Below are positions 1 to 59,591 of a stretch of 59,591 nt of DNA, piece by piece; the stretch's first letter is position 1, and every line of letters begins with the position of its first letter. The stretch lies in IMG/VR virus record IMGVR_UViG_3300028823_000151. One strand, given 5' to 3'. The notes beneath the pieces were generated by a model. The model was not told the origin of the DNA, searched no databases, and saw only the letters and a program-made list of their open reading frames with translations. The DNA comes from a virus. The position numbers and the translations under genes are program-made.

Positions 1-144
1 AAAAACAATTTTTCTAACTGTTTTCCACTGTTCGCATTAAGTTCTCTGCCAGCTATTTGATTTAATTCATCTTGTAGATCGTACCTTAAATCATCAAGTT
101 GCATTCCTGTTTTGTACAGCTTTTCTTTATCAACCCTTACACCT
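1..144. repeat. terminal overlap, left copy (identical to 59448..59591)
   Basis: Base-by-base comparison of the first and last 144 nt shows them identical. Confidence 0.95.
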
Positions 145-797
145 GTTCTTCTCATTTGTAAAAGCAATGGAAACAATCTCATCTCTATGTCGTATACATT
201 CATTAAGTTTTGATCTTCCAATAATCTTTTTTGTTTTTGAAAAACTTTGTAAGTAAGTAAAGCATCTTGTGCACCATAAGGTGCAACAACTAATGCTGGC
301 AAAGTATACAATATTTTATTGTCAACCCTACCTTTAGGAAACTCTATACCGTTATGAATCATATACTCCTTAATATCCCTATAGTTTTTTCCAATACCTA
401 AATATTCTTCACCCAAGGAATCTAAACTGTAAGTTAATTTATATTCATCAATAAGTGGTTCAGCTATTTGGACATCATTATATACACCATTAACAGGTAT
501 TCCTTCATAATTTATTAACCAATCTAAGTCGTATAATCCATTGGCAAATATTTTATGATTGTTAGAACTTAACTGATCAATAATATATTTACGATTTAAA
601 TTAGCTTTTTCAGGAGTCACATCAAAATGATTTATTGGATAATATTCTGAAAGTTCTCCATTAGAAAAGGAAACTCCAGTAACGTATCCATCTTTACGAT
701 AGACACCTGGACCCTTTTCTTTTAGTAAAGGGTCCTTTGATTCTATATCAACTGCTATTTCTTTATCACCTTTATATTGATAATAGCTTAACTTCAT
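1..797 (-). CDS. DNA polymerase I family (PolA-type), N-terminal 3'-5' exonuclease part; same gene as 58388..59591, joined across the circular junction (about 618 aa in total)
   Basis: My minus-strand translation from the ATG at 797 (AAGGAGGA upstream) reads MKLSYYQYKGDKEIAVDIESKDPLLKEKGPGVYRKDGYVTGVSFSNGEL... DIE is the ExoI DxE motif. The stretch I translated by hand (797 down to about 650) has no stop; I did not verify the rest of the frame down to position 1 codon by codon. The ATG at 104 equals the ATG at 59551 and is in frame (797-104=693). The ORF is missing from the track because it runs off the window edge. Confidence 0.85.
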   Translation of the reverse strand, partial: MKLSYYQYKGDKEIAVDIESKDPLLKEKGPGVYRKDGYVTGVSFSNGELSEYYPINHFDVTPEKANLNRKYIIDQLSSNNHKIFANGLYDLDWLINYEGIPVNGVYNDVQIAEPLIDEYKLTYSLDSLGEEYLGIGKNYRDIKEYMIHNGIEFPKGRVDNKILYTLPALVVAPYGAQDALLTYKVFQKQKRLLEDQNLMNVYDIEMRLFPLLLQMRRTGVRVDKEKLYKTGMQLDDLRYDLQDELNQIAGRELNANSGKQLEKLF

Positions 798-1255
798 CTT
801 AGAAATTCCTCCTTTATATCAAATATTTCTAAAAGGTTTTTTACAGTATCAACACCTATTTTTCCTTCCCATTTTGTATAGTCATTGTGATACTCTATAT
901 CGTAGATCACTACAGGAATTTTAAATAGATGCATATACTTTAAACATTGATCACAAGGACCATGAGTAACTAACATAATAAAGTCACTTAGATCAGTATT
1001 GTATCCAAGATTTTTAAAGCAATCGAATATCGCTCTTGGTTCAGCATGAATAGCCCAACATCCATCTTGTTGCCATTCATACTCTTTTCGTACACATTTT
1101 TCACATGGAACTTCAGCCCCTCCATGACCTACTCCAACAATCTCACCTGTATTTTTATACATTAAGACTGCACCTACTTTTTTCTTAAGACATTGGGATG
1201 TTTCTGCCATAACCTTTGCAAGCTCTACAGCGTCTAAAAACTTTTCCTTATTCAT
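794..1255 (-). CDS. deoxycytidylate (dCMP)/cytidine deaminase family zinc enzyme
   Basis: Carries HAEPRAI (HAE catalytic/zinc motif), HGPCDQC (PCxxC) and CLKKKVGAV. GGAGGGG lies upstream of the ATG. The gene overlaps the hydroxymethylase gene by 8 nt. Confidence 0.85.
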   Translation of the reverse strand: MNKEKFLDAVELAKVMAETSQCLKKKVGAVLMYKNTGEIVGVGHGGAEVPCEKCVRKEYEWQQDGCWAIHAEPRAIFDCFKNLGYNTDLSDFIMLVTHGPCDQCLKYMHLFKIPVVIYDIEYHNDYTKWEGKIGVDTVKNLLEIFDIKEEFLR

Positions 1256-2072
1256 ATTCCCCTCCTATGTATCCTATGTGTTTAAATAAAGTTTGACTAT
1301 ATAATTCTAATAAATAGTCATCACACCCCTTTTCAAATTCAGAACGTTTAAATTCAGAGATACCTATTAAATTATAAACTTTAGATAACTTTTCTTTTAT
1401 AAGAAGTAAATTTCTTTCGTACATGTGAAGACTACCAGTCTGATGATTATAGTTTCCTAGTTTTATGTCATAGTTTGAACGTAACTCCTTAAGCATCTTT
1501 AATTGTATTAAACAAAAGAAAGGAACATCATAAGGTAAACCATACCAAATATCTGAAGACCTCATCTTAACAAATAAATGTAGTTTCCCTCCTCTTATAA
1601 AAAATTGTAAAAACATTGTACACGGATTGTCATTACTAGGATGAGCATTTTCTCTGTTATATATTGTCATAACAGCTTTCTTGCTGTCCTTATTTTGTAA
1701 CAACATTTCCCTTGCATATTCAAACTGAGTGTAGTTGTGATGGTTTCTATCGTGTAACAATAGTTTTCCATAGTTACTAAAGATTGTTCTTCCATCATCT
1801 GAAACCTTGTTCCAGAATTTTGAATGCTTAGAAATTTCTTTTAGAAAAGGGCTTCCTGAAGTATAGAATTCTAATTCCCCTTTTAAATAATCTATAGACA
1901 TATCCCTACAAGTTGCGAAACATTTTTTAGGCTTTGTCAAAGTGAAACTATAGTCTAACAGTTCAAAAACCTTTTCTCCTTTTCTGTTTAATATACTATA
2001 GTCAAAATCATTGTACACTTTATCCATTAAGCAACAATAAATTTTATTAAAATCATTCTGAACTATCTTCAT
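1248..2072 (-). CDS. deoxypyrimidine-monophosphate hydroxymethylase, thymidylate-synthase superfamily, T4 gp42-like
   Basis: GELEFYTSGS (cf. T4 gp42 RELEWYKSKS), NPCTMFLQFF (catalytic Cys), KMRSSDIWYGLPYD and TGSLHMYERN (cf. VGSLHVYSRH). The ATG at 2072 with GGAGGGG 6 nt upstream is preferred over the TTG at 2075 used by the track. Confidence 0.8.
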   Translation of the reverse strand: MKIVQNDFNKIYCCLMDKVYNDFDYSILNRKGEKVFELLDYSFTLTKPKKCFATCRDMSIDYLKGELEFYTSGSPFLKEISKHSKFWNKVSDDGRTIFSNYGKLLLHDRNHHNYTQFEYAREMLLQNKDSKKAVMTIYNRENAHPSNDNPCTMFLQFFIRGGKLHLFVKMRSSDIWYGLPYDVPFFCLIQLKMLKELRSNYDIKLGNYNHQTGSLHMYERNLLLIKEKLSKVYNLIGISEFKRSEFEKGCDDYLLELYSQTLFKHIGYIGGEYE

Positions 2073-2141
2073 CAACTTCCCCTCCTGTTGTAATAAACAT
2101 TATACATAAGTTTATAATAGACTTGATTAAAGTCGAAATTA

Positions 2142-2759
2142 TCATTCATTACTTTTTTCCTCCCTTATGTCTGGGGTGACTGGTTTTCCTTCATATTTAG
2201 GCTTCTCTGTAGGATACAGTCCATGGATTCCAAGACGACCTTCCCAAAATTCTCTGCCCTTATTAAATTTTTTCTCACACTCTATAATTCTACTGCTTAA
2301 AATTTGAGCGTATCTTTCTATTGGTCCATAGATATATCTATTTCCTAAAGTATGTTCTTCAAAACAATATAAGTATGCTTCCATTTCATCAGACAATTTA
2401 AAAAGAAGTAATTGATCTTCCGTTAAGATATTTTCTATACCTTTGTCTGACCAAGGTTTAAGTTCTTCAGGAAGTGTTTCCTCTTCAAGTACACTCCAAG
2501 CTTCTTTTGTCTTTTCATTTTTGTTTCGTATCAGCCTATTCATATCGCCTGTAAAGGTCTCTGCAAAATCATGATTCATAAGTATAAATAAAATGTCCTC
2601 ATTTATTTCTACTCCAAACTCTTTACAAAACAAATAGAACAACGTGGCAGTTCCGTGTCCATGTTCGCATAGATTTTGTGGTCTTAAAACAAATTCCATT
2701 TCAAATCTTTTGATTGAAATCATTGTTTTTCTTTTGTCTAAATAATTTTCGATATTCAT
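2142..2759 (-). CDS. HD-domain 5'-deoxynucleotidase, YfbR-like
   Basis: RPQNLCEHGHG...LMNHDFAETFTGD...KLSDEMEAYLYCFEE parallels E. coli YfbR (ENVSEHS...YHDASEVLTGD...KQADALCAYLKCLEE). AAGGAG SD present. Confidence 0.75.
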   Translation of the reverse strand: MNIENYLDKRKTMISIKRFEMEFVLRPQNLCEHGHGTATLFYLFCKEFGVEINEDILFILMNHDFAETFTGDMNRLIRNKNEKTKEAWSVLEEETLPEELKPWSDKGIENILTEDQLLLFKLSDEMEAYLYCFEEHTLGNRYIYGPIERYAQILSSRIIECEKKFNKGREFWEGRLGIHGLYPTEKPKYEGKPVTPDIREEKSNE

Positions 2760-2761
2760 AT

Positions 2762-3829
2762 TTACTCCTTTATTAGTTTTGATATATGTGGTTTTAGTTT
2801 ACCTATTTTGGAAAACTCAATTAAATTATTGTACAAAGGTTCTTTAGGATGTAACTTCTGTATTTTTTCAACTGTATGTATACAGTCGCCATAAAAATAT
2901 TCCTTACCCCAGTAAGGATATAAACCTACACGAAAACTTCTTTGACTACATAGAACACATGAAATAAGATCTTCTCTATATCCTTCCGCAAGTAGTGCTC
3001 TAACCTTTTGAAACTTTTCACCTTGCCAAATATCAAGTACATGTTCTTCGTTAACGTTACCTAAGTCTATACACTTAGCACCATTACTACAACAAATATC
3101 TACGATTCCATCATAACCTATTGTCATATATTTGTAGGGTTCTTTACATACTTTTCTTAATGGAAAGTCCTGTAATTTTGAACCTGTATATTTTTCCCAT
3201 TGGGAAAGTTTTAGGTTGCCTCCCCAATTGTGCATACGTCTTGTAACGTTACCATCACAATTAAATATGTCACTTTCGTCTGTTAAGATAATTGTTTTAT
3301 GTTTATAACCTTTATAAGAAAAAGCATTAACGTTGTCTTTATAATAGTCATAAACTTGTATTCCTTTTATTTCTAAAATTCTTTTGTTTCTTTCTAGTTC
3401 ACCTATAAAGAAATCCCTTTGTGCCTTACTATAAAAATCTGTTTGAGCATAATTAAGACCCTTGTCAAACAAGTCTATAAATTCAAATATGTTTTTACTT
3501 TTATAGACTTCAGTATTTGTTATTATAAGTATCTGTGCCTTTGGCATTTTTTCTCTTATAATACCTATGTACTCTCCTACATTCTTATGTAGAGTTGGTT
3601 CACCTTGTAAAGAGATTGATATACGTTTTGTTTTTTCTGTCAGGTTATCTACAATATTCAACAAAGTTTCTTTTGTTATTCTACCAGTAGAAGCTTGTGA
3701 CCTTCCACAGAAAGAACAATTAAGGTTACATCCTCTTACAAATTCTATACGAACCTGATTTGGTTCTGTAAAAACAAGTAGATTATGTTTCCTTAATTCT
3801 GCGACATGCTCCTTATCATACATTTCCAT
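2762..3829 (-). CDS. radical SAM enzyme with C-terminal SPASM/twitch-like Cys-rich domain
   Basis: VRGCNLNCSFCG is the CX3CX2C radical-SAM cluster motif. The C-terminal VCKEP...GIVDICCSNGAKCIDLGNV...ISCVLCSQ resembles an auxiliary Fe-S (SPASM) domain. Confidence 0.85.
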   Translation of the reverse strand: MEMYDKEHVAELRKHNLLVFTEPNQVRIEFVRGCNLNCSFCGRSQASTGRITKETLLNIVDNLTEKTKRISISLQGEPTLHKNVGEYIGIIREKMPKAQILIITNTEVYKSKNIFEFIDLFDKGLNYAQTDFYSKAQRDFFIGELERNKRILEIKGIQVYDYYKDNVNAFSYKGYKHKTIILTDESDIFNCDGNVTRRMHNWGGNLKLSQWEKYTGSKLQDFPLRKVCKEPYKYMTIGYDGIVDICCSNGAKCIDLGNVNEEHVLDIWQGEKFQKVRALLAEGYREDLISCVLCSQRSFRVGLYPYWGKEYFYGDCIHTVEKIQKLHPKEPLYNNLIEFSKIGKLKPHISKLIKE

Positions 3830-3831
3830 AG

Positions 3832-4689
3832 TTACCTTCCGTTATATTTTCTAAACTTTACTTTTTGATTTCCAGTGTAAGCATTAAGATACTTAACATA
3901 CTTTTGATATTCACACAACCAATGTTCAACTTCCCTTAAGGTTATTTTTTCTTCTGGAAAGTATATTCTAAATTCTTCTTCCATTACTTCCCTTACAACT
4001 ACTGCATCAGGCAACCAATCTCTTTGTTTTATTCTTACAGTAGGATAACCAAACCTTATAAGGCTCATTCCTTGTCTTGCCCCAGGACCCATGTTTGCAT
4101 AGGTATTTTTATCGGTTGGATTAAAGTAGTCTGTGTATTCAAAATCACAAGCATATTCGTATGCCATAAAACCACCAACACCAGGAAATTGTTTTAGAAA
4201 ATCTACAAGCCTTTCCATAGAGTTTTCTTTAATAACTTCTTTTATATAATCGTTAGCTTTTAAACTTTCAATTAAAAAGAATGGAGCTTCATACGTTTCT
4301 AACCAACCACCAGGTACTCTTGGATTTCTTATAAAGCATGAAGAAAATAATTTTTCCCCTTCTTCTTTTCTACTACTAAGAAAATCTTTTACTTCAGATA
4401 AATTGTCCAGTTTACAGTTTTCTTTTATTCTACAGAATGTAGAATATGTAGAAATAAACCTGTATAAAATTATTAAATCCCATCTTTCAAAGGGAAGTAT
4501 GTTTTCTATTAACCACTTTGTACACTTATCGTATTGACGAAACACATTACAGAAAAAGAAATTTTGGAATATCTCATCCTCAGTCCAAGGAGCTGGCATT
4601 CCTTCTTCCTTTAATTTGTAAATCTTATGTCGTTCAATAGCCGTATCTAAGAAGTGATTAAAGTGTTCAGAATTAAAATGGTTATTCAT
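3832..4689 (-). CDS. putative DNA base hypermodification protein, alpha-glutamyl/putrescinyl-thymine pyrophosphorylase (aGPT-Pplase)-like
   Basis: The N-terminal ERHKIYKLKEEGMPAPWTEDEIFQNFFFCNVFRQYDKCTKWLIENI matches my recollection of the conserved start of this family (..R..I...R..G...PWT.D.IL....FCN.YR..DR.....). This rests on memory only and was not searched. Confidence 0.5.
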   Translation of the reverse strand: MNNHFNSEHFNHFLDTAIERHKIYKLKEEGMPAPWTEDEIFQNFFFCNVFRQYDKCTKWLIENILPFERWDLIILYRFISTYSTFCRIKENCKLDNLSEVKDFLSSRKEEGEKLFSSCFIRNPRVPGGWLETYEAPFFLIESLKANDYIKEVIKENSMERLVDFLKQFPGVGGFMAYEYACDFEYTDYFNPTDKNTYANMGPGARQGMSLIRFGYPTVRIKQRDWLPDAVVVREVMEEEFRIYFPEEKITLREVEHWLCEYQKYVKYLNAYTGNQKVKFRKYNGR

Positions 4690-4706
4690 ATATTTCTCCT
4701 ATCATC

Positions 4707-5624
4707 TTATTCATATCCTTTTAAAAATGTATTAGTTCCAAGTATAATTTTCATACCTTCTTCAGCTGGTATATAAGGTTCCTCGCCTTCAGGTAAAAAT
4801 CTTTTCCAGTCTATTGTACAATCTAATCTTTCCTCATCCCATAGTCCGTTGTTCTTTATTTTAAGATCAACATACCCAGGAAATTCTTTACATAATTGTT
4901 TAGCGGATTCAGATTGTGCTTCTACTGTTCTTGTTTCTGAACATCCACCTTTGTATCCTGTTCCAGGGTCACCACAGCACCAACGAGCATTGCTTAAAGA
5001 CTTGTAACCTTTTGACAATAATTTTAATTGTACATAACGATCACTCATAAAAGGAACAGGCATTTCATTAATCTTTATACCTTCCTTTATTAAAGTTGGA
5101 ACATGGTAACAAACGAATCTTATAATTGGAATATTCTTAGGAAACATGTATTTAATTCCTTGGCTTCCAAGCTTCAATGGCAGTCCAACTATTGGGTACT
5201 CCTCATTACAAAGTTGTATACTTTCATAAAGTATTTTATTAAAGCAATCGTTTGCAATAAAGTCTTCATGCCTTGAAGTATATTTTGAAGATAGATTTTC
5301 ATCTCTGAAATACAAGTTTATATCATCGTCAATTATAAATAGGTATTCAGTAAAATTTTCCTTTGCTATATCAAAACACTTTTGTCTTTTATCTGCGATT
5401 GTAGAATCATCAGGTACAACAAAGACAGGTGCATAATTATCTACAGCTTTTCTATAGTCACTTGCTTCACTTTCTCGAACTATAATTTCGTATAGATAAT
5501 TAAAGCTAAAAGGGTCTATATGTTTCCATATACCTATTCTTTTTTCTATAAGATGTATCCTATTTCTAGATGGAATACTTATAGAATAATTTAAGTTTGT
5601 TAACTTATTATAAATTTCACTCAT
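4707..5624 (-). CDS. GT-A-fold glycosyltransferase-like protein (possible DNA-base glycosyl/other group transferase)
   Basis: YSISIPSRNR near the N-terminus and LFIIDDDINL (DxD) are GT-A hallmarks. They resemble phage IPSYKR-type/TET-associated glycosyltransferases. The assignment is weak. Confidence 0.4.
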   Translation of the reverse strand: MSEIYNKLTNLNYSISIPSRNRIHLIEKRIGIWKHIDPFSFNYLYEIIVRESEASDYRKAVDNYAPVFVVPDDSTIADKRQKCFDIAKENFTEYLFIIDDDINLYFRDENLSSKYTSRHEDFIANDCFNKILYESIQLCNEEYPIVGLPLKLGSQGIKYMFPKNIPIIRFVCYHVPTLIKEGIKINEMPVPFMSDRYVQLKLLSKGYKSLSNARWCCGDPGTGYKGGCSETRTVEAQSESAKQLCKEFPGYVDLKIKNNGLWDEERLDCTIDWKRFLPEGEEPYIPAEEGMKIILGTNTFLKGYE

Positions 5625-7038
5625 TCATAGACCTCCTAAAAATACTTTCGTAACCGAATTGTGAATTAGAATGTACAATATGTAAATTCTTTTTTGCTCT
5701 TGTTAAAGCTACATATAAACATCTTAATTCAGAATCCAAGGCTTCTACATTTCGTTCAAGGTTATTGTCAATAGTTTTAGTTACATCTAACAACAAAACA
5801 ACATTGTCAGCTTCACCACCCTTTACTCCATGTATTGTATTCACTTCACAATTTGTTTTAGTAACATCAACTTTGTTTTTAAACAAGTCTTTAAAATAAG
5901 TTTTCTCGTTTATATCAAAGTTCAGAGAATAAAACCACGGATCTTTAATGTTTATAATGTCTCTTAAATAAGGTTTAAGTGATAGGTCAGTATAAATTTG
6001 TTCAGGATCATACTTCCTATGTTTTTCATAAATCCTTACAGCGTTATACTTTTTCATATCAACACTATACCTGTGCTTATATTGAAAAGTCATTCCTAAC
6101 TCCCGTAACCTTTTTCCATATATAGATAAGTGATAATTATTTCTGGCTAGAAAGTAGTAAGATTCCTCATTGTTTATAGGTATCTCATCTACTTTATTAT
6201 AAAAATAAATTTCACCACCTTCTTGTACAGGGTCAAAGATTTTATCTACACGATTAGATATTTGTTTTGAAAATAGTTTAGAAAAATTTAGTATCTTTTG
6301 TCTAAGTCTGTACGATTTGTCCAACACAATGTTTTCACTATGTTTTGAAAGATTTAAAAAATGTTTTATATCAGAGCCTGACCATTCATATATTGCTTGG
6401 TCATCATCCCCTGCTATATAAACTTTGTTACAATTTCTAAAAGCTACTTCACAAAATTTCCATTGCAAGGATGTAAGGTCTTGTGCTTCATCAATTATAG
6501 CTACTTGAACAGGTAACGGTTTATCTTTTTTAATAAACTCTACAATTAAATCATCAAAATCCTTTACTCCCATTTCAGTTTTAAATCTTTCATAGTTATT
6601 GGAAACAAAATTTACTTTCTTTACATCTAAATCCTCCAACAATATTTCAGCGGTCCTTGGATTATTTTTCTTTAGAGAAACATAAAACAAATATTTATCA
6701 TCGTTATTGATAAAGTCCTCTGTGTAGTAACCTACAAAGTTCATACCCATTGCCCTTGAAAACTCTTTATAATTTTTCTTGGAAATCATTTCATACCTTG
6801 ACATTCCAAGGTCTCTAAAAGCTAATGAATGAATAGTTCTAAAATAAGGTAAGTCAGAATCTTTATAACCAAACTTTTCAGTAGCTCTATCTCTTCCTTC
6901 ATAACTTCCTTTCTTTGTAAAAGAAACAAAGGCAATTTTATCTGAATCATAATCATCCAAAATGTCAGAAAGTAAGTTCAATAAGTACGTTGTCTTTCCA
7001 CACCCTGGAGCTCCAAAGATCATTGTTGTTTCTTGCAT
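5617..7038 (-). CDS. superfamily 1 (UvrD/Rep-like) DNA helicase
   Basis: FGAPGCGKTT (Walker A), AIIDEAQD (motif II), AGDDDQAIYEW (III), TIHGVKGGEADNV (V) and LYVALTRAKKNLHIV (VI). The ATG at 7038 immediately follows the stop of the upstream gene; the track start at 7056 is a TTG. Confidence 0.85.
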   Translation of the reverse strand: MQETTMIFGAPGCGKTTYLLNLLSDILDDYDSDKIAFVSFTKKGSYEGRDRATEKFGYKDSDLPYFRTIHSLAFRDLGMSRYEMISKKNYKEFSRAMGMNFVGYYTEDFINNDDKYLFYVSLKKNNPRTAEILLEDLDVKKVNFVSNNYERFKTEMGVKDFDDLIVEFIKKDKPLPVQVAIIDEAQDLTSLQWKFCEVAFRNCNKVYIAGDDDQAIYEWSGSDIKHFLNLSKHSENIVLDKSYRLRQKILNFSKLFSKQISNRVDKIFDPVQEGGEIYFYNKVDEIPINNEESYYFLARNNYHLSIYGKRLRELGMTFQYKHRYSVDMKKYNAVRIYEKHRKYDPEQIYTDLSLKPYLRDIINIKDPWFYSLNFDINEKTYFKDLFKNKVDVTKTNCEVNTIHGVKGGEADNVVLLLDVTKTIDNNLERNVEALDSELRCLYVALTRAKKNLHIVHSNSQFGYESIFRRSMNE

Positions 7039-7039
7039 A

Positions 7040-7498
7040 TTACCTGTCCAGTCCAAACAAAGGTAGAGGATCCCTTAACATAACTCCACACTTTAAAGGG
7101 GATATAAAATCATTTGTACTATTATAATAAAAAGTTTTACCTCTTCTATCTATTAAAAGGTAAGTCACTAAAGATTTATCTTTGCTAAACTTAATTCCAT
7201 AAAGTCTTATTGGATATCTCACACTATAAGAATTAAATTTTCTAGGTCTATTCTTTTTGTGAAAACCTTTCTTATGATAATCTAAAAACAAATATTGGTA
7301 TGTTAGATACTCATAACTATTTCCAAGATACTTAACTCCGCTTGGATTATATTCAAACTGTTCACAAGTATCGTACTTAAACATTTGTCCTACACGTTCT
7401 GAAAGTTCATCAAATGAAGGGATAAAAACTTCACCTTTAATAGATACAGTAAACAAAAGAACTATAGTTATAATTGTAAAAAATATTATTTTCTTCAT
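7040..7498 (-). CDS. secreted or membrane-anchored hypothetical protein
   Basis: N-terminal MKKIIFFTIITIVLLFTVSIKG looks like a signal/anchor sequence. The gene is packed tightly between the primase and helicase genes. Confidence 0.55.
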   Translation of the reverse strand: MKKIIFFTIITIVLLFTVSIKGEVFIPSFDELSERVGQMFKYDTCEQFEYNPSGVKYLGNSYEYLTYQYLFLDYHKKGFHKKNRPRKFNSYSVRYPIRLYGIKFSKDKSLVTYLLIDRRGKTFYYNSTNDFISPLKCGVMLRDPLPLFGLDR

Positions 7499-9129: not shown

Positions 9130-9452
9130 ATTTCATCTTTATCCTTTACCTCATAAACCTTTTCTTTAACGTACAGTTTTTCATCTTCAAGATAAAACTG
9201 TTCGATACAAATACCCTCTTCATCCGGTGCAGGTTTTCCTGGTAGAACAAAAGGATATTCAAAAAGTTCCTGAGCCTCTATGAATACAGAATCATTAATC
9301 CTTATAGCTTTTAGTTTTCTTATTCTATTTCCCCTATTAACTAGAGCACGAATAGAAACTGAACTTCTATTTGTTAATTTTGAAAATTGTGTTACTAACC
9401 AATAATCAGTTCCATCTATGTTTATAGTTTTCTCATTATAAACCTGGATCAT
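9120..9452 (-). CDS. hypothetical protein, possible helix-turn-helix DNA binding
   Basis: The ORF overlaps both neighbours. YWLVTQFSKLTNRSSVSIRALVNRG looks excisionase/MerR-like. Confidence 0.4.
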   Translation of the reverse strand: MIQVYNEKTINIDGTDYWLVTQFSKLTNRSSVSIRALVNRGNRIRKLKAIRINDSVFIEAQELFEYPFVLPGKPAPDEEGICIEQFYLEDEKLYVKEKVYEVKDKDEICH

Positions 9453-9720
9453 CTTTTCCTCCTAGATTGATATTACTTTTAAATTTGACAATTTTGTTTC
9501 CACCCACAACAATCATCTCCTTACTTTTAGGGTGAATTATTTCTCTTTGTTTAGTTTCCTTTAATTCAAAGGTTCCGAATCCTCTAAAAGTCACTTTTCT
9601 ATTGTTCTCTAATTCTTTAATCACTATTTCAAATATCAAATTTATTGTATCAACTACCTTTTTTCTAGGAAGATTTAACTGCTTAGAAATATTTTCGGCT
9701 ATTTCTTTTTTCGTAGCCAT
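9436..9720 (-). CDS. HU/IHF-family (type II) DNA-binding protein
   Basis: MATKKEIAENISKQLNLPRKKVVDTINLIFEIV...FRGFGTFELKETKQREIIHPKS has the typical HU fold signature and beta-arm. GAGG SD present. Confidence 0.85.
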   Translation of the reverse strand: MATKKEIAENISKQLNLPRKKVVDTINLIFEIVIKELENNRKVTFRGFGTFELKETKQREIIHPKSKEMIVVGGNKIVKFKSNINLGGKDDPGL

Positions 9721-12710: not shown

Positions 12711-14264
12711 CTATTTAGGTAAATTTACTTCATTCCTTGAGTCTGATGTGTCAAATAAATATCTGTATTCAACACCAACAGCAAAGGCAATATTCTTTTG
12801 TATGTACCTTTTGTTACCAGCAGCGTTTCGCTTAGGAAAATAATGTAAGTAACCACCTGAACCTGTTAATGATAAACATTTAAAAGGTGTTATCTTAATT
12901 CCACCTGAAATTGAAACGCATGGAATCTGTGCATCTAAATCACTATAAGTCTTTTTATTTGCACCTCCATAATAATAAGCTGTACCAGCTCCAAACTCTA
13001 GCCAGTCAAAAGGTTTTAACTTTAAACCAAATTGTCCGTCCCAGGCATCACTATAATTGTCATTATATCCCAGTATCTCACCACCTTCATCAGAATAAGA
13101 ATCAGCGAGCTTAACAAAATAATAATGACCTTGTATACCTACTGCAAGCCAACCAGTTGGACTCCATTCAATTCCAAGCCCAACCAGAGAAGGTAAATTG
13201 TAACTTCTACGTCTTCCATCCACAAACATACCTGCAAAACTTTTTCCATCCTTAACACTTTCTTTCCAAGACAGAACTGTTTGAGATTCGTAACGCAAAC
13301 CAATATTTAAACTTTCTACTGGCCTCCAGTGTAAACCTATAATTGCCCCTATTCCATGGGCTTCTTTACTTGCGTCTAATTCCACTAACTCAGTAGTAAT
13401 ATTTGCAGGGTTATTTACTTCATCTGCAATTTGATCAGCAACCATACATCCATCACTAACAGCAACTGGAGTTATTCGATACTTTGTCCACCCTGAATAC
13501 TCGTTCTTAGCGTATATGTATCTTATACTGAAAGAAGTAGCGAAAACTTTTTCAATAATTTGATAAGCTGTACCTATTGTCCCAGCTAAATACATACTGC
13601 TACCTTTAACTTCACCACCTAACCAATCAACTTTAGTGTTTGAAAAATCTAAATGCTGCTCAACATACTTCATTGAATTAAAGTCAATGGATGGATCATT
13701 CGGATTAAAAAAGTCAGATCCAATAATTGATCTTATTGTAGGCGCAAGCCAATATTCAGTAACAGACATGTGTGCTTTTTCAGCTAACCCTTTGTGTGCC
13801 TGTTCAAAAATAATATCCTGTGCTTGATCTGAGACCTTTGGACAATTTTCATCCAACATAGGAATACCATCTTTGTAATGTCTTGTACCACCACCAGCAG
13901 GAATTGTGAACGATGCAAACAATGACCAACGCCCTTTCTTAAAAACAAAGTAGGCATTTGGTATTGCTGGAACAGGTTCATTAGAACCGTAAGTCTTACC
14001 CTTGTATTCCATTCCACTGTAAGATACTGTGATACTTTGTACACTTACATCAAAGTGAATTCCATCTTTCATAAATGCTGTGCCTGCTGGATTAAAATTT
14101 GCTATGTCCGCCCCTTCTGTAGAACCTATCCTTATAGGATTCATTAAGTAGTTAGCAGACTGGTTGGGCAAATAATCAATATTTGCCATTGCACGTTTCG
14201 TATAAATAAGTTGAGTTAATGTTGCCATAACTAAAGACAACAAAATAAATCGTAATGTAACCAT
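12711..14264 (-). CDS. outer-membrane beta-barrel protein, FadL/TodX (OMPP1) family-like
   Basis: The ATG at 14264 has a GGGGGG SD. Signal peptide MVTLRFILLSLVMATLTQLIYTKRAMA is followed by NIDY. The N-terminal NFNPAGTAF matches the NPAG hatch motif of FadL. The rest shows long alternating beta-strand patterns with Gly/aromatic girdles and a terminal strand AFAVGVEYRY. Confidence 0.65.
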   Translation of the reverse strand: MVTLRFILLSLVMATLTQLIYTKRAMANIDYLPNQSANYLMNPIRIGSTEGADIANFNPAGTAFMKDGIHFDVSVQSITVSYSGMEYKGKTYGSNEPVPAIPNAYFVFKKGRWSLFASFTIPAGGGTRHYKDGIPMLDENCPKVSDQAQDIIFEQAHKGLAEKAHMSVTEYWLAPTIRSIIGSDFFNPNDPSIDFNSMKYVEQHLDFSNTKVDWLGGEVKGSSMYLAGTIGTAYQIIEKVFATSFSIRYIYAKNEYSGWTKYRITPVAVSDGCMVADQIADEVNNPANITTELVELDASKEAHGIGAIIGLHWRPVESLNIGLRYESQTVLSWKESVKDGKSFAGMFVDGRRRSYNLPSLVGLGIEWSPTGWLAVGIQGHYYFVKLADSYSDEGGEILGYNDNYSDAWDGQFGLKLKPFDWLEFGAGTAYYYGGANKKTYSDLDAQIPCVSISGGIKITPFKCLSLTGSGGYLHYFPKRNAAGNKRYIQKNIAFAVGVEYRYLFDTSDSRNEVNLPK

Positions 14265-14281
14265 TGGAACCCCCCAATTTG

Positions 14282-14464
14282 TTATTTTCTCCAAACACGA
14301 ATTCCAATTCCAAAAACGATCCATCTAAAATAAACATACTTAGAATCTTCTACTCCGATGTGTTTTGCAATTGAAATTGTTGGAACAATGAATACTTCTT
14401 TGCACAGCTCATCATCCGTATACAAATTCCAAAACACAATCTTACTTTTTAGAAAGTGTTTCAT
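14282..14464 (-). CDS. hypothetical small protein
   Basis: Called only from packing and its 4-nt overlap with the upstream ORF. Confidence 0.35.
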   Translation of the reverse strand: MKHFLKSKIVFWNLYTDDELCKEVFIVPTISIAKHIGVEDSKYVYFRWIVFGIGIRVWRK

Positions 14465-17708: not shown

Positions 17709-18182
17709 TTATTTAAGACCTTTATCTTTATTTAATGTAACCTTGTTTTCGGCTGGTCTATAACCTTGCCAGTTAGCAGGAGCGTCTTTTCCTTTTCCTT
17801 CTAACTTGTATGTACCTGTTTTAGGATCGAAAGAAATCCATACCCTATTTTCAGGCTCAACTTTAAGGATAGACTTACGGATAATACTTGCACATTCTTT
17901 ACGTCCCATTTTAAATTGTTTGAAAACTTCATCTTCAGAAACACTTTTCTTTTCGGTAAGAAAATCAATAAACTTGGACATCGCTGAACTTGATCCGCCA
18001 CCTGTAGCTATACCATATAGTGAAGGGCGAATTTTTGCAAGAGCGTCTTTGTACTTAGGATCTGATTGTTTGTCAACAAGCTCTTTAATTATTGCGAAAC
18101 TTTCTTTTTTCATCTGAGCCTTTGATTTACCTTCAGTCTTTGCAGCTCCTACAGTTTGTTCAGTTTTCTTTTCGTTTAACAT
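17709..18182 (-). CDS. hypothetical Lys-rich protein, monocistronic unit with its own terminator
   Basis: AAGGAG SD at 7 nt. A perfect palindromic terminator lies 35 nt downstream. Confidence 0.55.
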   Translation of the reverse strand: MLNEKKTEQTVGAAKTEGKSKAQMKKESFAIIKELVDKQSDPKYKDALAKIRPSLYGIATGGGSSSAMSKFIDFLTEKKSVSEDEVFKQFKMGRKECASIIRKSILKVEPENRVWISFDPKTGTYKLEGKGKDAPANWQGYRPAENKVTLNKDKGLK

Positions 18183-20213: not shown

Positions 20214-20603
20214 ATGTCTAAAGAATTTGATCAAAAGAAAGAACAAATAGTCGCATGTTTTGAAAGGACGTTTGATAAGAACATGGCCTACACAAAACTT
20301 GGACTAACGGATAAGGAAATAGAACTGCTTGAAAACGACAAGGAGTTTCAACAACGTTTGGAATTTCGTCTTATAGACAAGCGTGAAGAATTGATAGACA
20401 AGTACTCAGAGTTTATGGAAAGTGATAATGAAAGTATTTCCTTTAAGGCTACACAAGAAATGGCACAGGTCCTTTATCCGGATTTCTTTAAGAACAAAAG
20501 GGAGTCGGGAATTATTATCAACAATAACCTAACCGACTTTAGTAAGTTCACAGATGATCAACTTAAAGTGATTATACAAAAAGGGAAATTAAGAAATGAA
20601 TGA
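20214..20603 (+). CDS. hypothetical protein, possible terminase small subunit
   Basis: Lies upstream of terL and has an HTH-like segment, MAYTKLGLTDKEIELL. The evidence is position only. Confidence 0.3.
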   Translation: MSKEFDQKKEQIVACFERTFDKNMAYTKLGLTDKEIELLENDKEFQQRLEFRLIDKREELIDKYSEFMESDNESISFKATQEMAQVLYPDFFKNKRESGIIINNNLTDFSKFTDDQLKVIIQKGKLRNE

Positions 20604-20877
20604 TCAAATAGAAAAGAATTTTACTTACCATGTACCAACTGAAGATGACATTTCTGTTTTGTCTATGATAAGACAAACCGCAAAGGACTTTGTTTACTTG
20701 TTAGATGAATTTTGTCCAGACTCTCGTGAACGTTCTTTAGCTATAACAAAAATTGAAGAGTCTGTAATGTGGGCCAATGCTTCTATTGTAAGAAACAAAA
20801 CTACATGGAAGGATAAACAGGATCCTTTAGAGGATCTTAAGAATGGAATAAAGATTGTAGAGGAAAACTATAAGTGA
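20596..20877 (+). CDS. hypothetical protein, possibly Acb2/Vs.4-like cyclic-nucleotide-binding anti-defence protein
   Basis: NFTYHVPTEDDISVLSMIRQTAKDFVYLLDEFCPDSRERSLAITKIEESVMWANASIVRN follows a widespread phage pattern (F.YH.P...IR....L...I....P.SRE.SLA.TK.EE..MWAN..I.R). I associate that pattern with this family from memory only. Confidence 0.35.
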   Translation: MNDQIEKNFTYHVPTEDDISVLSMIRQTAKDFVYLLDEFCPDSRERSLAITKIEESVMWANASIVRNKTTWKDKQDPLEDLKNGIKIVEENYK

Positions 20878-58237: not shown

Positions 58238-58409
58238 CCTTTTTCTCCTTTTTGTTTTCGTTTAGCCAATCATAATCTATAGGACTATAACCTTCAAGCA
58301 TTCTTCTTTTAAAAATTCTATGTTTACATTTCTTACATTCATAATAGTTATGAACTCCAGAATACTTTACAAACTTGTATCTATGAATTAAACATACTCT
58401 ATTTTCCAT
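58230..58409 (-). CDS. 59-aa zinc-finger-like protein (below the track cutoff)
   Basis: My own translation gives MENRVCLIHRYKFVKYSGVHNYYECKKCKHRIFKRRMLEGYSPIDYDWLNENKKEKKDG*. It overlaps the polymerase stop by 22 nt and the next gene's start by 8 nt, and fills an otherwise unexplained 150-nt gap. Confidence 0.35.
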   Translation of the reverse strand: MENRVCLIHRYKFVKYSGVHNYYECKKCKHRIFKRRMLEGYSPIDYDWLNENKKEKKDG

Positions 58410-59591
58410 TCCTTTAGATCCCCCCAGTTTTCACCAATTTCTGCATCGACTATTACAGGAACCCTTAGACGTATACTTGTTTCCATTATGTGTTTCAATT
58501 CTTCGCCTGCATCCCTACCTATTTCAGTTCTTGGCATACTACAGTCCATTTCATCATGGACTGTTAAGTGTGGAATTAGAACGTCGAATACTCCAGCTTC
58601 ATAAGCATCAACCATAGACTTTTTCATAATGTCTGCTGCAGAACCTTGTATAAGTCTATTAAACATTATATATTCTTTTCCAGACTGTGGCATACGAGCA
58701 CGACGATTTAATATTGTTCTTATGTATCCAAACCGTTTTGCCTTTGATGCAACTCTCCTTCCTGTCTCTTTAACGAATGGAACTTTTGAATGATACATTT
58801 CATAAACAGCCTTAGCACCTTCAAGTTCCCAATTATATTTTCTAGACATAGATGTAATTCCCATCCCATAAGCAGCTCCAAAGTTTAGTGTCTTAATAAC
58901 CTTACGGTCATCAATACCTGTCATTTCCATAAGTTCAGCATGGTAGTCTACGTTTGGATCGTTAATATATCTTTGTCGTATAACCTCTGAACCTTCTCCA
59001 GAAGCGTAATGTGCTATAAGTCGATATTCAATTTGTGACCAGTCCATCTTTAACCAATCACAACCTTCCTCTGGAACAAATAGTTTTCTTACAACTTGAC
59101 CGGACAATACTTCACTATCATGTTGTATATATTCGTTTTCATTTTTTCCAGAAACTTGCTGTAAATTTGGATTTGATGAAGAGAACCTTCCACTTACTGT
59201 TCCATAATCATCACTTCTTAATTGATTAAAGCTACAATGTAGTCTATCACCTACCATTAATTCTGGATAAGGATGTATAAACATATTTAATAAAGTGGAA
59301 ATATGTCTAATTTCTAATATTTTTTTAGCTAGATCATGATCCATTTTACTTAATGTTTCCTTATCAAACTTTGGATTTCCTTTAAGTTGTCCTTTCATTA
59401 TCATTAACTCAGTAGGTTCATTGTATTCTACAGGATGTCCCATAGACAAAAACAATTTTTCTAACTGTTTTCCACTGTTCGCATTAAGTTCTCTGCCAGC
59501 TATTTGATTTAATTCATCTTGTAGATCGTACCTTAAATCATCAAGTTGCATTCCTGTTTTGTACAGCTTTTCTTTATCAACCCTTACACCT
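58388..59591 (-). CDS. DNA polymerase I family (PolA-type), polymerase domain; continues upstream into 1..797 across the circular junction
   Basis: KMDWSQIEYRLIAHY (motif A), RKVIKTLNFGAAYGMG (motif B) and HLTVHDEMD (motif C). The frame is open beyond the listed Met at 59551 up to the window end. Confidence 0.9.
   Translation of the reverse strand, partial: GVRVDKEKLYKTGMQLDDLRYDLQDELNQIAGRELNANSGKQLEKLFLSMGHPVEYNEPTELMIMKGQLKGNPKFDKETLSKMDHDLAKKILEIRHISTLLNMFIHPYPELMVGDRLHCSFNQLRSDDYGTVSGRFSSSNPNLQQVSGKNENEYIQHDSEVLSGQVVRKLFVPEEGCDWLKMDWSQIEYRLIAHYASGEGSEVIRQRYINDPNVDYHAELMEMTGIDDRKVIKTLNFGAAYGMGITSMSRKYNWELEGAKAVYEMYHSKVPFVKETGRRVASKAKRFGYIRTILNRRARMPQSGKEYIMFNRLIQGSAADIMKKSMVDAYEAGVFDVLIPHLTVHDEMDCSMPRTEIGRDAGEELKHIMETSIRLRVPVIVDAEIGENWGDLKEWKIEYV
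59448..59591. repeat. terminal overlap, right copy (identical to 1..144)
   Basis: As for the left copy. The repeat lies inside the polymerase ORF, so it most likely reflects circular assembly or a permuted genome. Confidence 0.95.

Follow-up and report, generated by a model that had tools for sequence, protein, structure and literature searches.

A glycosyltransferase in the usual place of the DNA kinase beside a clade-1 aGPT-Pplase: a candidate kinase-free variant of phage hydroxymethylpyrimidine DNA hypermodification

The gene cluster

We combined profile searches, structure prediction and a comparison of related loci in an analysis of IMGVR_UViG_3300028823_000151, an IMG/VR virus record of 59,591 nucleotides, which is called the window hereafter and was considered at its full length. 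The subject is a cluster in which a glycosyltransferase (GT) of the GT-A fold is encoded beside a protein of the aGPT-Pplase superfamily, with no recognisable 5-hydroxymethyldeoxyuridine (5-hmdU) DNA kinase in the genome. To our knowledge, every characterised thymidine-hypermodification pathway begins with a DNA kinase. We read the cluster, with a probability of about 0.5, as a form of phage 5-hydroxymethylpyrimidine DNA hypermodification that does without the kinase and in which the GT would glycosylate the base.

The record is a phage genome with 30-38% GC, and its family-A DNA polymerase (PolA) gene lies across the ends of the window (1-797 and 58388-59591, minus strand), which identifies it as complete and circularly permuted. 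It has structural genes of the Pam3/E217 myovirus type, and megablast of 12 kb against phages gave no close relative. Seven tightly packed, partly overlapping genes occupy the minus strand from 7056 down to 794, and the polymerase gene comes next. In the order of transcription they are:

5617..7056, minus strand: UvrD-like superfamily 1 helicase, transcribed first (Pfam UvrD-helicase, E 3.1e-26)
4707..5624, minus strand: TAGT-family GT-A glycosyltransferase, 305 residues (Pfam PF20691, phrog_842, AlphaFold2 (AF2) model)
3832..4689, minus strand: stand-alone clade-1 aGPT-Pplase, 285 residues (Pfam PF18723, 'HMUDK_hel')
2762..3829, minus strand: radical S-adenosylmethionine (SAM) enzyme with a SPASM/twitch domain (Pfam Radical_SAM and SPASM)
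2142..2759, minus strand: HD-domain, YfbR-like 5'-deoxynucleotidase (Pfam PF12917, E 3.6e-17)
1248..2075, minus strand: thymidylate-synthase homologue of the T4 gp42 type (PDB sequence match 1b49)
794..1255, minus strand: deoxycytidine monophosphate (dCMP) deaminase (Pfam PF00383, E 1.9e-13; phrog_174)

An earlier note, made from the letters alone, had pointed to the adjacent minus-strand open reading frames (ORFs) at 3832-4689 and 4707-5624. Both are real, with the coordinates given there, and the motifs that it quoted for the GT (ISIPSRNR, IIDDD and RWCCGDPGTGYKGGCSETRT) are present. The end of the helicase gene overlaps the start of the GT gene by 8 bp, and the five related loci described below all have the helicase immediately upstream of the GT; it is probably a replication gene that stands outside the modification chemistry. 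The radical SAM gene begins 2 bp after the clade-1 gene, and the last 8 bp of the hydroxymethylase gene are also the start of the deaminase gene. No NCBIfam model reaches its cut-off for the radical SAM protein, and the NCBIfam 5'-deoxynucleotidase model gives the HD protein an E of 6.7e-12, which is under that model's cut-off. The HD gene is kept in 5/5 relatives and in most clade-1 loci, and its product is a candidate for the enzyme that excludes the canonical nucleotide.

The clade-1 aGPT-Pplase

The product of 3832..4689 matches Pfam PF18723 with an E of 1.9e-45 (155.8 bits against a cut-off of 25), its residues 8-267 of 285 lying on profile positions 2-274 of 281. A Pfam scan at E <= 0.01 gave this family only, and our own clade-2 hidden Markov model (HMM) gave an E of 0.39. 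On sequence criteria the protein is therefore assigned to clade 1 and not to clade 2, which holds the proven amino-acid:DNA transferases (AADT). Its AF2 model is all-helical and has a fold like that of helix-hairpin-helix glycosylases, with a predicted local distance difference test score (pLDDT) of 94.5. Among 48,161 PDB chains, the best VIA-align match to this model was 8z2m, PaMx11 gp46/PUGT (Z 10.0, a moderate value for an all-helical protein; root-mean-square deviation 4.2 over 213 residues), followed by DUF2419 and then by the helix-hairpin-helix glycosylases (Ogg/Nth/AlkA). PUGT was recovered by this wide search only; Foldseek with the same model returned nothing significant, and the sequence has no PDB sequence match.

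The earlier note had called the protein Pplase-like, while allowing that it might be unrelated to that group. Membership of the superfamily is confirmed by the PF18723 and 8z2m matches, but the described kinase-dependent enzymes, with which it had been compared, belong to clade 2. Likewise, the premise that aGPT-Pplases act after a kinase has been shown for clade 2, the clade with published activity and structure (PMC8989533, PMC11472151, PMC13458397); the clade-1 protein of M6, gp55, was dispensable in the in-vitro reconstitution (PMC8989533).

Across 32 diverse clade-1 sequences, the residues H256, C259, E260 and K263 do not vary. They fall in or near an E-H-x-L-C-E motif (EHWLCE here) that kinase-linked and GT-linked members have alike, and the Cys-Glu pair and the His are strictly conserved in the closest members of about 5,600 family representatives, across all locus classes. 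Alignment by hhalign to the clade-2 protein Ab18 ORF09 gave a local match of 17 columns only (E 0.064; REVEHWLCE against QEVETILCK), and this short, weak match sets C259 on the column of Cys247, the residue of PaMx11 gp46/PUGT that has been proposed as the nucleophile on C6 (PMC11472151). Since the Cys/Glu/His motif is kept across kinase-linked and GT-linked members, the clade-1 protein is probably an enzyme rather than a passive helical domain.

The Pfam name of PF18723, 'HMUDK_hel, 5-hmdU DNA kinase helical domain', derives from SP10 gp186, a proven kinase (637 residues; L001:7038-8951), in which PF18723 forms the C-terminal part, behind a P-loop domain (PF18748) at the N-terminus, and aligns with the window protein. 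In M6/PaMx11-like phages, kinase and clade 1 are encoded by adjacent genes (Ab18 ORF12 and ORF13). Neither fusion nor adjacency to a P-loop 5-hmdU kinase is seen in the window; this is a feature of context and not a sequence criterion. SP10 makes alpha-glutamylthymine (PMC5889632, Table 3), and its sole aGPT-Pplase-family domain is the clade-1 domain of the kinase-fused gp186. Because SP10 has no other domain of this family, the clade-1 domain may be its glutamate:DNA transferase, in contradiction to the 'helical domain' label, and clade-1 proteins may themselves be C5-methylene transferases.

The label could also be taken at its word, with the clade-1 protein as a non-enzymatic accessory that binds DNA, flips the base and presents it to the kinase or the GT. 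This would agree with the fusion in SP10 gp186, with the kinase or GT that neighbours clade 1 in most loci, and with the dispensability of M6 gp55 in vitro. We nevertheless hold it to be quite improbable, as a pure adaptor would hardly need such strict conservation of Cys-Glu and His, and the M6 kinase functions without the clade-1 protein.

The glycosyltransferase

The GT-A-like character that had been read from the letters of 4707-5624 agrees with the Pfam, PHROG and structural matches. Pfam TAGT (PF20691) scores 32.1 bits, 4.6 bits above its cut-off of 27.5, and covers residues 15-134 only, and phrog_842 ('beta-glucosyl-HMC-alpha-glucosyltransferase') is matched over residues 12-275 with an E of 2e-25. 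A profile of 21 GT homologues was aligned by hhalign with gp22 of the phage PhiJL001, itself a strong TAGT member (E 2.7e-53); the alignment spans residues 14-278 (259 columns, 97.8%, E 7e-13) and pairs GGCSETRT with GGCSVWRT and MSDRY with MEDFD. The AF2 model consists of one GT-A domain (pLDDT 90.6, predicted template modelling score 0.90), for which Foldseek found TarP, RmlT and GnT-I with a probability of 1.0. TarP is also the top PDB match reported for characterised phage GT-A enzymes. The TAGT family includes the T2/T6 beta-glucosyl-HMC-alpha-glucosyltransferases, and its phage GT-A enzymes are reported as glycosylating 5-hydroxymethylcytosine (5hmC) in DNA (bioRxiv 10.1101/2023.12.21.572611).

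The motifs of the window GT are R20/R22, DDD at 99-101, MSDRY at 193-197 and GGCSETRT at 226-233. D99-D100-D101, a DxD-type motif for metal and nucleoside diphosphate (NDP) sugar, is conserved in the homologues. In the EDY/F motif, Ser stands in place of the Glu in most of the subfamily, a few members retain the Glu, and Asp195 is invariant. The full length of the protein is conserved in 51 metagenomic homologues with 41-60% identity. The C-terminal half, which had seemed to be without a counterpart, is covered both by phrog_842 and by the gp22 alignment, and the GGCSxxRT in that supposedly orphan sequence is a conserved motif of the TAGT family. Judging from these alignments and the model, the C-terminal half forms the acceptor side of an ordinary TAGT fold, and the GT represents a divergent TAGT subfamily. 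In keeping with this divergence, tblastn against 50,697 phage records gave no phage match. A single-sequence scan of IMG/VR gave none either; homologues were recovered by an alignment-based scan. The alignment profile has no PDB sequence match.

Searches for a kinase and a clade-2 transferase

The profile used to look for the 5-hmdU DNA kinase (5-HMUDK) was seeded with eight kinases, proven or annotated as such, among them SP10 gp186N, Ab18 ORF12, PhiW-14 gp37 and an M6 gp54 homologue, and grew to 47 sequences through iteration on control loci. As a control, the kinase profiles recovered 39-48 kinases, and a kinase was found in 48 of the 82 clade-1 loci of the census described below. In the circularised window, searched in six frames at maximum sensitivity, the best E was 0.57-0.73. 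A Pfam search of all 88 ORFs of at least 40 residues revealed no kinase family of any fold. Neither our clade-2 HMM nor Pfam found a clade-2 transferase anywhere in the window genome, and the whole genome of PhiJL001 is likewise without kinase and clade 2. The absence of the expected kinase, which the earlier note had reported by eye, is thus upheld, and two additional ORFs with a Walker-A pattern match, checked as kinase candidates, were rejected as spurious. One (17709-18182, 157 residues) lies in a Lys-rich N-terminal tail of a protein without a family match, and the other (12711-14324, 537 residues) lies in a protein with a signal peptide and the look of a FadL/TbuX-type beta-barrel.

A kinase too divergent to recognise, which had been offered as one explanation, is now unlikely in view of these searches. 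If a divergent small-ORF protein or a host enzyme did supply the step, the classical route through 5-phosphomethyldeoxyuridine (5-PmdU) would operate and the GT would add an extra decoration. Roughly one in two of the small ORFs matches no family, and two related loci (L033 and L034) have kinase and GT together. Yet neither the 47-sequence profile nor Pfam produced a candidate, the kinase is equally absent from PhiJL001 and from 23 GT-type loci (8 kb on either side), and there is no clade-2 transferase to make use of 5-PmdU. We regard a missed kinase as very improbable.

Partners of clade-1 proteins in related loci

Five related IMG/VR loci, with 35-65% protein identity, retain the order helicase-GT-clade 1-HD-hydroxymethylase-(deaminase)-PolA. 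They carry one or two GTs and either zero to two SPASM radical SAM genes or a B12-type radical SAM. A second GT stands in tandem in L005, a divergent second TAGT follows clade 1 in L007 and L008, and L007 has two SPASM radical SAM genes. In L010 (IMGVR_UViG_3300017971_000337), which is without a SPASM radical SAM, a 428-residue B12-binding class-B radical SAM protein that resembles HpnJ/PhpK/AprD4 is encoded between GT and clade 1 (L010:8908-10194), which suggests that the same scaffold is tailored there by another chemistry. Such variation in GT number and radical SAM type is typical of glycan diversification. Among the metagenomic homologues of the GT and of clade 1, the sizes of the source contigs agree pair by pair. 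As a separate observation, an HNH homing-endonuclease gene has settled within the L007 cluster, between the second GT and the radical SAM genes (L007:10599-10982, IMGVR_UViG_3300027896_001999).

We then counted the partners of clade 1 within 8 kb on either side in 82 clade-1 loci, including the window and PhiJL001. A kinase without a TAGT GT was present in 46 loci, 23 of them also with clade 2; a TAGT GT without kinase or clade 2 was present in 23; and 11 had neither kinase nor GT. Only two loci, the near-identical contigs L033 and L034, had both, with the GT 4.3 kb away. Clade 2 was seen only alongside a kinase, and the kinase or the GT is usually the direct same-strand neighbour of clade 1. 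The GT occupies the genomic position that is usually held by the kinase. The exclusivity gives a Fisher p of 4e-10 on raw counts. In a quick maximum-likelihood tree of the clade-1 domains (IQ-TREE), GT-linked members are spread over the tree, and branches with good support require five or more changes of label. Taken together, the kinase-or-GT pattern is suggestive, not proven. It lends some support to the proposal of the earlier note that the GT replaces the kinase step, without showing which chemistry is involved.

One such chemistry would use the sugar as a leaving group. The GT would glycosylate the 5-hydroxymethyl oxygen, and the clade-1 protein would attack C6 through Cys259 and swap in another nucleophile; the final base would then carry a non-sugar group, which the radical SAM enzyme would rearrange as M6 gp53 does. 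The nearly exclusive and usually directly adjacent partnership of clade 1 with either kinase or TAGT fits this scheme, and so do the retention in kinase-type and GT-type loci of the Cys aligned with PUGT Cys247 (PMC11472151) and the case of SP10, where clade 1 may itself be a transferase in need of an activated substrate (PMC5889632). The second divergent GTs and the sugar-type tailoring enzymes of the relatives, on the other hand, fit a retained glycan better, and no recurrent amino-acid-tailoring genes are found near GT-type loci. A sugar is also a poorer leaving group than phosphate, and we know of no precedent for a sugar in this role in such an activation. We consider this scheme unlikely; if true, it would amount to a new activation chemistry for DNA base hypermodification, with an undescribed base and a function for the clade-1 family of about 5,600 members.

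In 16 GT-type loci of other lineages, no pyridoxal-phosphate (PLP), flavin adenine dinucleotide (FAD), acetyltransferase or amidotransferase gene recurs among the neighbours, and small P-loop proteins are absent; FkbM-type methyltransferases do occur there. The SPASM radical SAM family occurs in 9 of the 82 clade-1 loci, 8 of which are GT-type. No fusion of GT and clade 1 was found among the longer proteins or the top 150 of 5,614 representatives, a weak negative in that proteins of 500-625 residues lay outside the search. One fusion of another kind was observed: P0153 (931 residues, on a JGI contig of 5,273 bp) has PF00476 at 323-529 and PF18723 at 649-910 in one predicted protein, which is either a genuine PolA-clade-1 fusion that ties base modification to replication or the result of two genes merged in gene calling.

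The hydroxymethylase, the deaminase and the DNA base

The best PDB sequence match of the hydroxymethylase is the T4 dCMP hydroxymethylase (1b49, E 3.9e-20), ahead of all thymidylate synthases. The final Asp of the window sequence RSSDIWYGLPYD aligns with D179 of gp42 in 'RSNDVVFGFRND', and the uracil-type Asn of the classical thymidine-hypermodification systems is missing. The earlier premise of 5-hmdU therefore needs correction, as with this cytosine-type Asp the DNA base may not be 5-hmdU. Where the hydroxymethylase motif of other clade-1 loci can be read, it is the SPO1-type '...GAN' form with Asn in about 58 of 60 cases; these include PhiJL001 and most GT-type loci outside the window's own lineage. 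That lineage has the gp42-like type, and so does its sister L020, as judged from the N-terminal part of the gene that lies within the locus. The deaminase gene follows the hydroxymethylase gene directly in 4/5 relatives and lies about 410 bp downstream in L017.

A T-even-like cytosine pathway has to be weighed here. The gp42-like enzyme would make 5-hydroxymethyl-dCMP (5hm-dCMP), the DNA would carry 5hmC, and the GT would glycosylate it; the deaminase would merely feed deoxyuridine monophosphate (dUMP) to the host thymidylate synthase, like T4 Cd, and the clade-1 protein would act on derivatives of 5hmC or have an unrelated role. The Asp at the specificity position, the T4 gp42 match and the equally gp42-like sister locus L020 agree with this pathway, as does the activity of characterised TAGT members on 5hmC or glucosyl-hydroxymethylcytosine (bioRxiv 10.1101/2023.12.21.572611). 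Against it stand the SPO1-type, dUMP-specific Asn form in nearly all other readable loci and the order GT-clade 1-(radical SAM)-HD-hydroxymethylase, which is common to Asn-type loci. In addition, clade 1 has identical candidate active-site residues in the window lineage and in distant members, which argues for the same target base, and the overlap of the deaminase and hydroxymethylase genes would be more natural for enzymes that act in succession than for rivals for one substrate. The pathway is possible, if rather doubtful in our view.

As to the base itself, three observations make us lean towards 5-hydroxymethyluracil (hmU), formed via deamination of 5hm-dCMP, over 5hmC: Asn-type loci have the same module order, clade 1 keeps its candidate active-site residues, and the genes for deaminase and hydroxymethylase overlap. 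The combination of a cytosine-type Asp with the overlapping deaminase suggests a route from dCMP via 5hm-dCMP to 5hm-dUMP.

Proposed pathway

In the kinase-free glycosylation pathway that we favour, the gp42-like hydroxymethylase, the coupled dCMP deaminase and the HD nucleotidase would remodel the nucleotide pool before replication, probably along the route just named. The phage polymerase would then incorporate the 5-hydroxymethylpyrimidine, with 5-hmdU as the favoured base. The TAGT GT-A enzyme, as its family membership suggests, would move a sugar from an NDP-sugar onto the hydroxymethyl group; as the phage has no sugar-nucleotide genes, the donor would come from the host. The radical SAM enzyme would subsequently tailor the sugar, and the extra GTs of the relatives may tailor or extend it. 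The clade-1 protein is predicted from sequence and model to be a base-flipping, Cys-dependent enzyme that acts on the same 5-substituted pyrimidine. Neither a DNA kinase nor a clade-2 transferase would take part.

Several points weigh against this pathway. The constant position of clade 1 beside the GT is unexplained if the sugar is a mere final decoration. The cytosine-type Asp makes 5hmC a serious alternative base, and the Ser in place of the Glu of the EDY/F motif is, from the alignments, a peculiarity of this GT subfamily. The many unannotated small ORFs leave room for an unrecognisable kinase, and a host kinase is formally possible. Finally, a sign test of the partner exclusivity on phylogenetically independent pairs is underpowered (5 pairs, median p 0.5).

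Comparison with known systems

The classical thymidine-hypermodification systems (M6, PaMx11, ViI, PhiW-14, SP10 and SH-Ab 15599) are described as combining 5-HMUDK with a clade-2 aGPT-Pplase/AADT (PMC5889632, PMC8989533, PMC11472151, PMC13458397). Like them, the window has a nucleotide-level supply of 5-hydroxymethylpyrimidine, a dCMP deaminase and a nucleotide-exclusion enzyme, a clade-1 gene (compare M6 gp55, ViI gp160, PhiW-14 gp72 and SP10 gp186C), a radical SAM gene within the cluster (M6 gp53, SP10 gp185) and a location beside PolA. Unlike them, it has neither a P-loop 5-hmdU DNA kinase (PF18748) nor a clade-2 transferase and no PLP, FAD or acetyltransferase tailoring genes, and a TAGT GT stands where the kinase usually sits. 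Its hydroxymethylase is gp42-like (Asp), whereas theirs is SPO1-like (Asn), and its radical SAM protein is of the SPASM type, not SPL-like.

With the TAGT/phage GT-A DNA glycosyltransferases, the window GT shares the GT-A fold with TarP as best PDB neighbour, the N-terminal Arg motif, the DDD and GGCSxxRT motifs, and a position beside base-hydroxymethylating genes. This group, which comprises the T2/T6 enzyme and the 5mYOX-associated GT-A, has a distant likeness to the trypanosome base-J glucosyltransferase JGT. The window GT differs from its other members in the Ser of the EDY/F motif and in its partners, which are a clade-1 aGPT-Pplase and a radical SAM enzyme instead of TET/JBP and a methyltransferase.

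The T4 5hmC pathway resembles that of the window in its Asp-type hydroxymethylase, gp42 being the closest match, in its dCMP deaminase and in glycosylation after replication, which is predicted for the window. However, the GT of the window is a GT-A TAGT while those of T4 are the GT-B alpha/beta-GT, the deaminase gene of the window overlaps the hydroxymethylase gene, an HD nucleotidase takes the place of the gp56 dCTPase, and a clade-1 aGPT-Pplase and a radical SAM enzyme are present. No Pfam family of the GT-B alpha/beta-glucosyltransferases or of the gp56-type dCTPase was found in any window ORF.

A cultured phage with this architecture is PhiJL001 (AY576273), an Alphaproteobacteria phage whose gp19-gp25 region encodes clade 1 (gp19), TAGT (gp22), an Nmad5 protein (gp23), a dUMP hydroxymethylase (gp24) and an HD protein (gp25). 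It thus shares with the window clade 1, the TAGT GT, the hydroxymethylase, the HD protein and the genome-wide absence of kinase and clade 2. It differs in the SPO1-type dUMP hydroxymethylase (Asn) and in having the Nmad5 protein in place of the radical SAM enzyme. PhiJL001 is a high-GC siphovirus of the Mesyanzhinovviridae, and these proteins are 22-29% identical to those of the window.

In the literature searched, which did not extend to Iyer et al. 2013, we found no kinase-free module of clade-1 aGPT-Pplase and TAGT described. The combinations in Lee et al. are of kinase and AADT only, and a GT survey reports GT-A genes near thymidylate-synthase homologues and dCMP deaminases with no Pplase mentioned. 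The recurrence of the module predicts at least one undescribed base, a sugar-bearing hydroxymethyluracil (base-J-like) or a derivative of it. Such bases affect the evasion of restriction and CRISPR and the sequenceability of DNA, and they are a source of DNA-modifying enzyme tools. GT-type loci also provide a clean system for the function of clade 1, with no kinase or clade-2 paralogue as a confounder, and PhiJL001 is a cultured representative of the same architecture.

Other genes of the window

Three genes outside the cluster deserve mention. The 537-residue protein of 12711-14324 (minus strand), already encountered as a spurious Walker-A match, has an N-terminal signal or transmembrane segment, a beta-barrel-like character and a weak PDB match to TbuX of the FadL family, and it matches neither Pfam nor PHROG; a gene for an outer-membrane channel is unusual in a lytic-looking phage. 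The gene at 20596-20877 (plus strand, 93 residues), just upstream of the terminase gene, encodes an Acb2/Tad1 hairpin domain (PF24729, E 1.3e-18), and its product is likely a sponge for cyclic-nucleotide immune signals (anti-CBASS or anti-Thoeris). Lastly, an HU/IHF-type DNA-binding protein is encoded in the replication module at 9436-9720 (minus strand), one homologue in its alignment matching Bac_DNA_binding with an E of 2.8e-20. It recalls TF1 of SPO1, which prefers hmU DNA.

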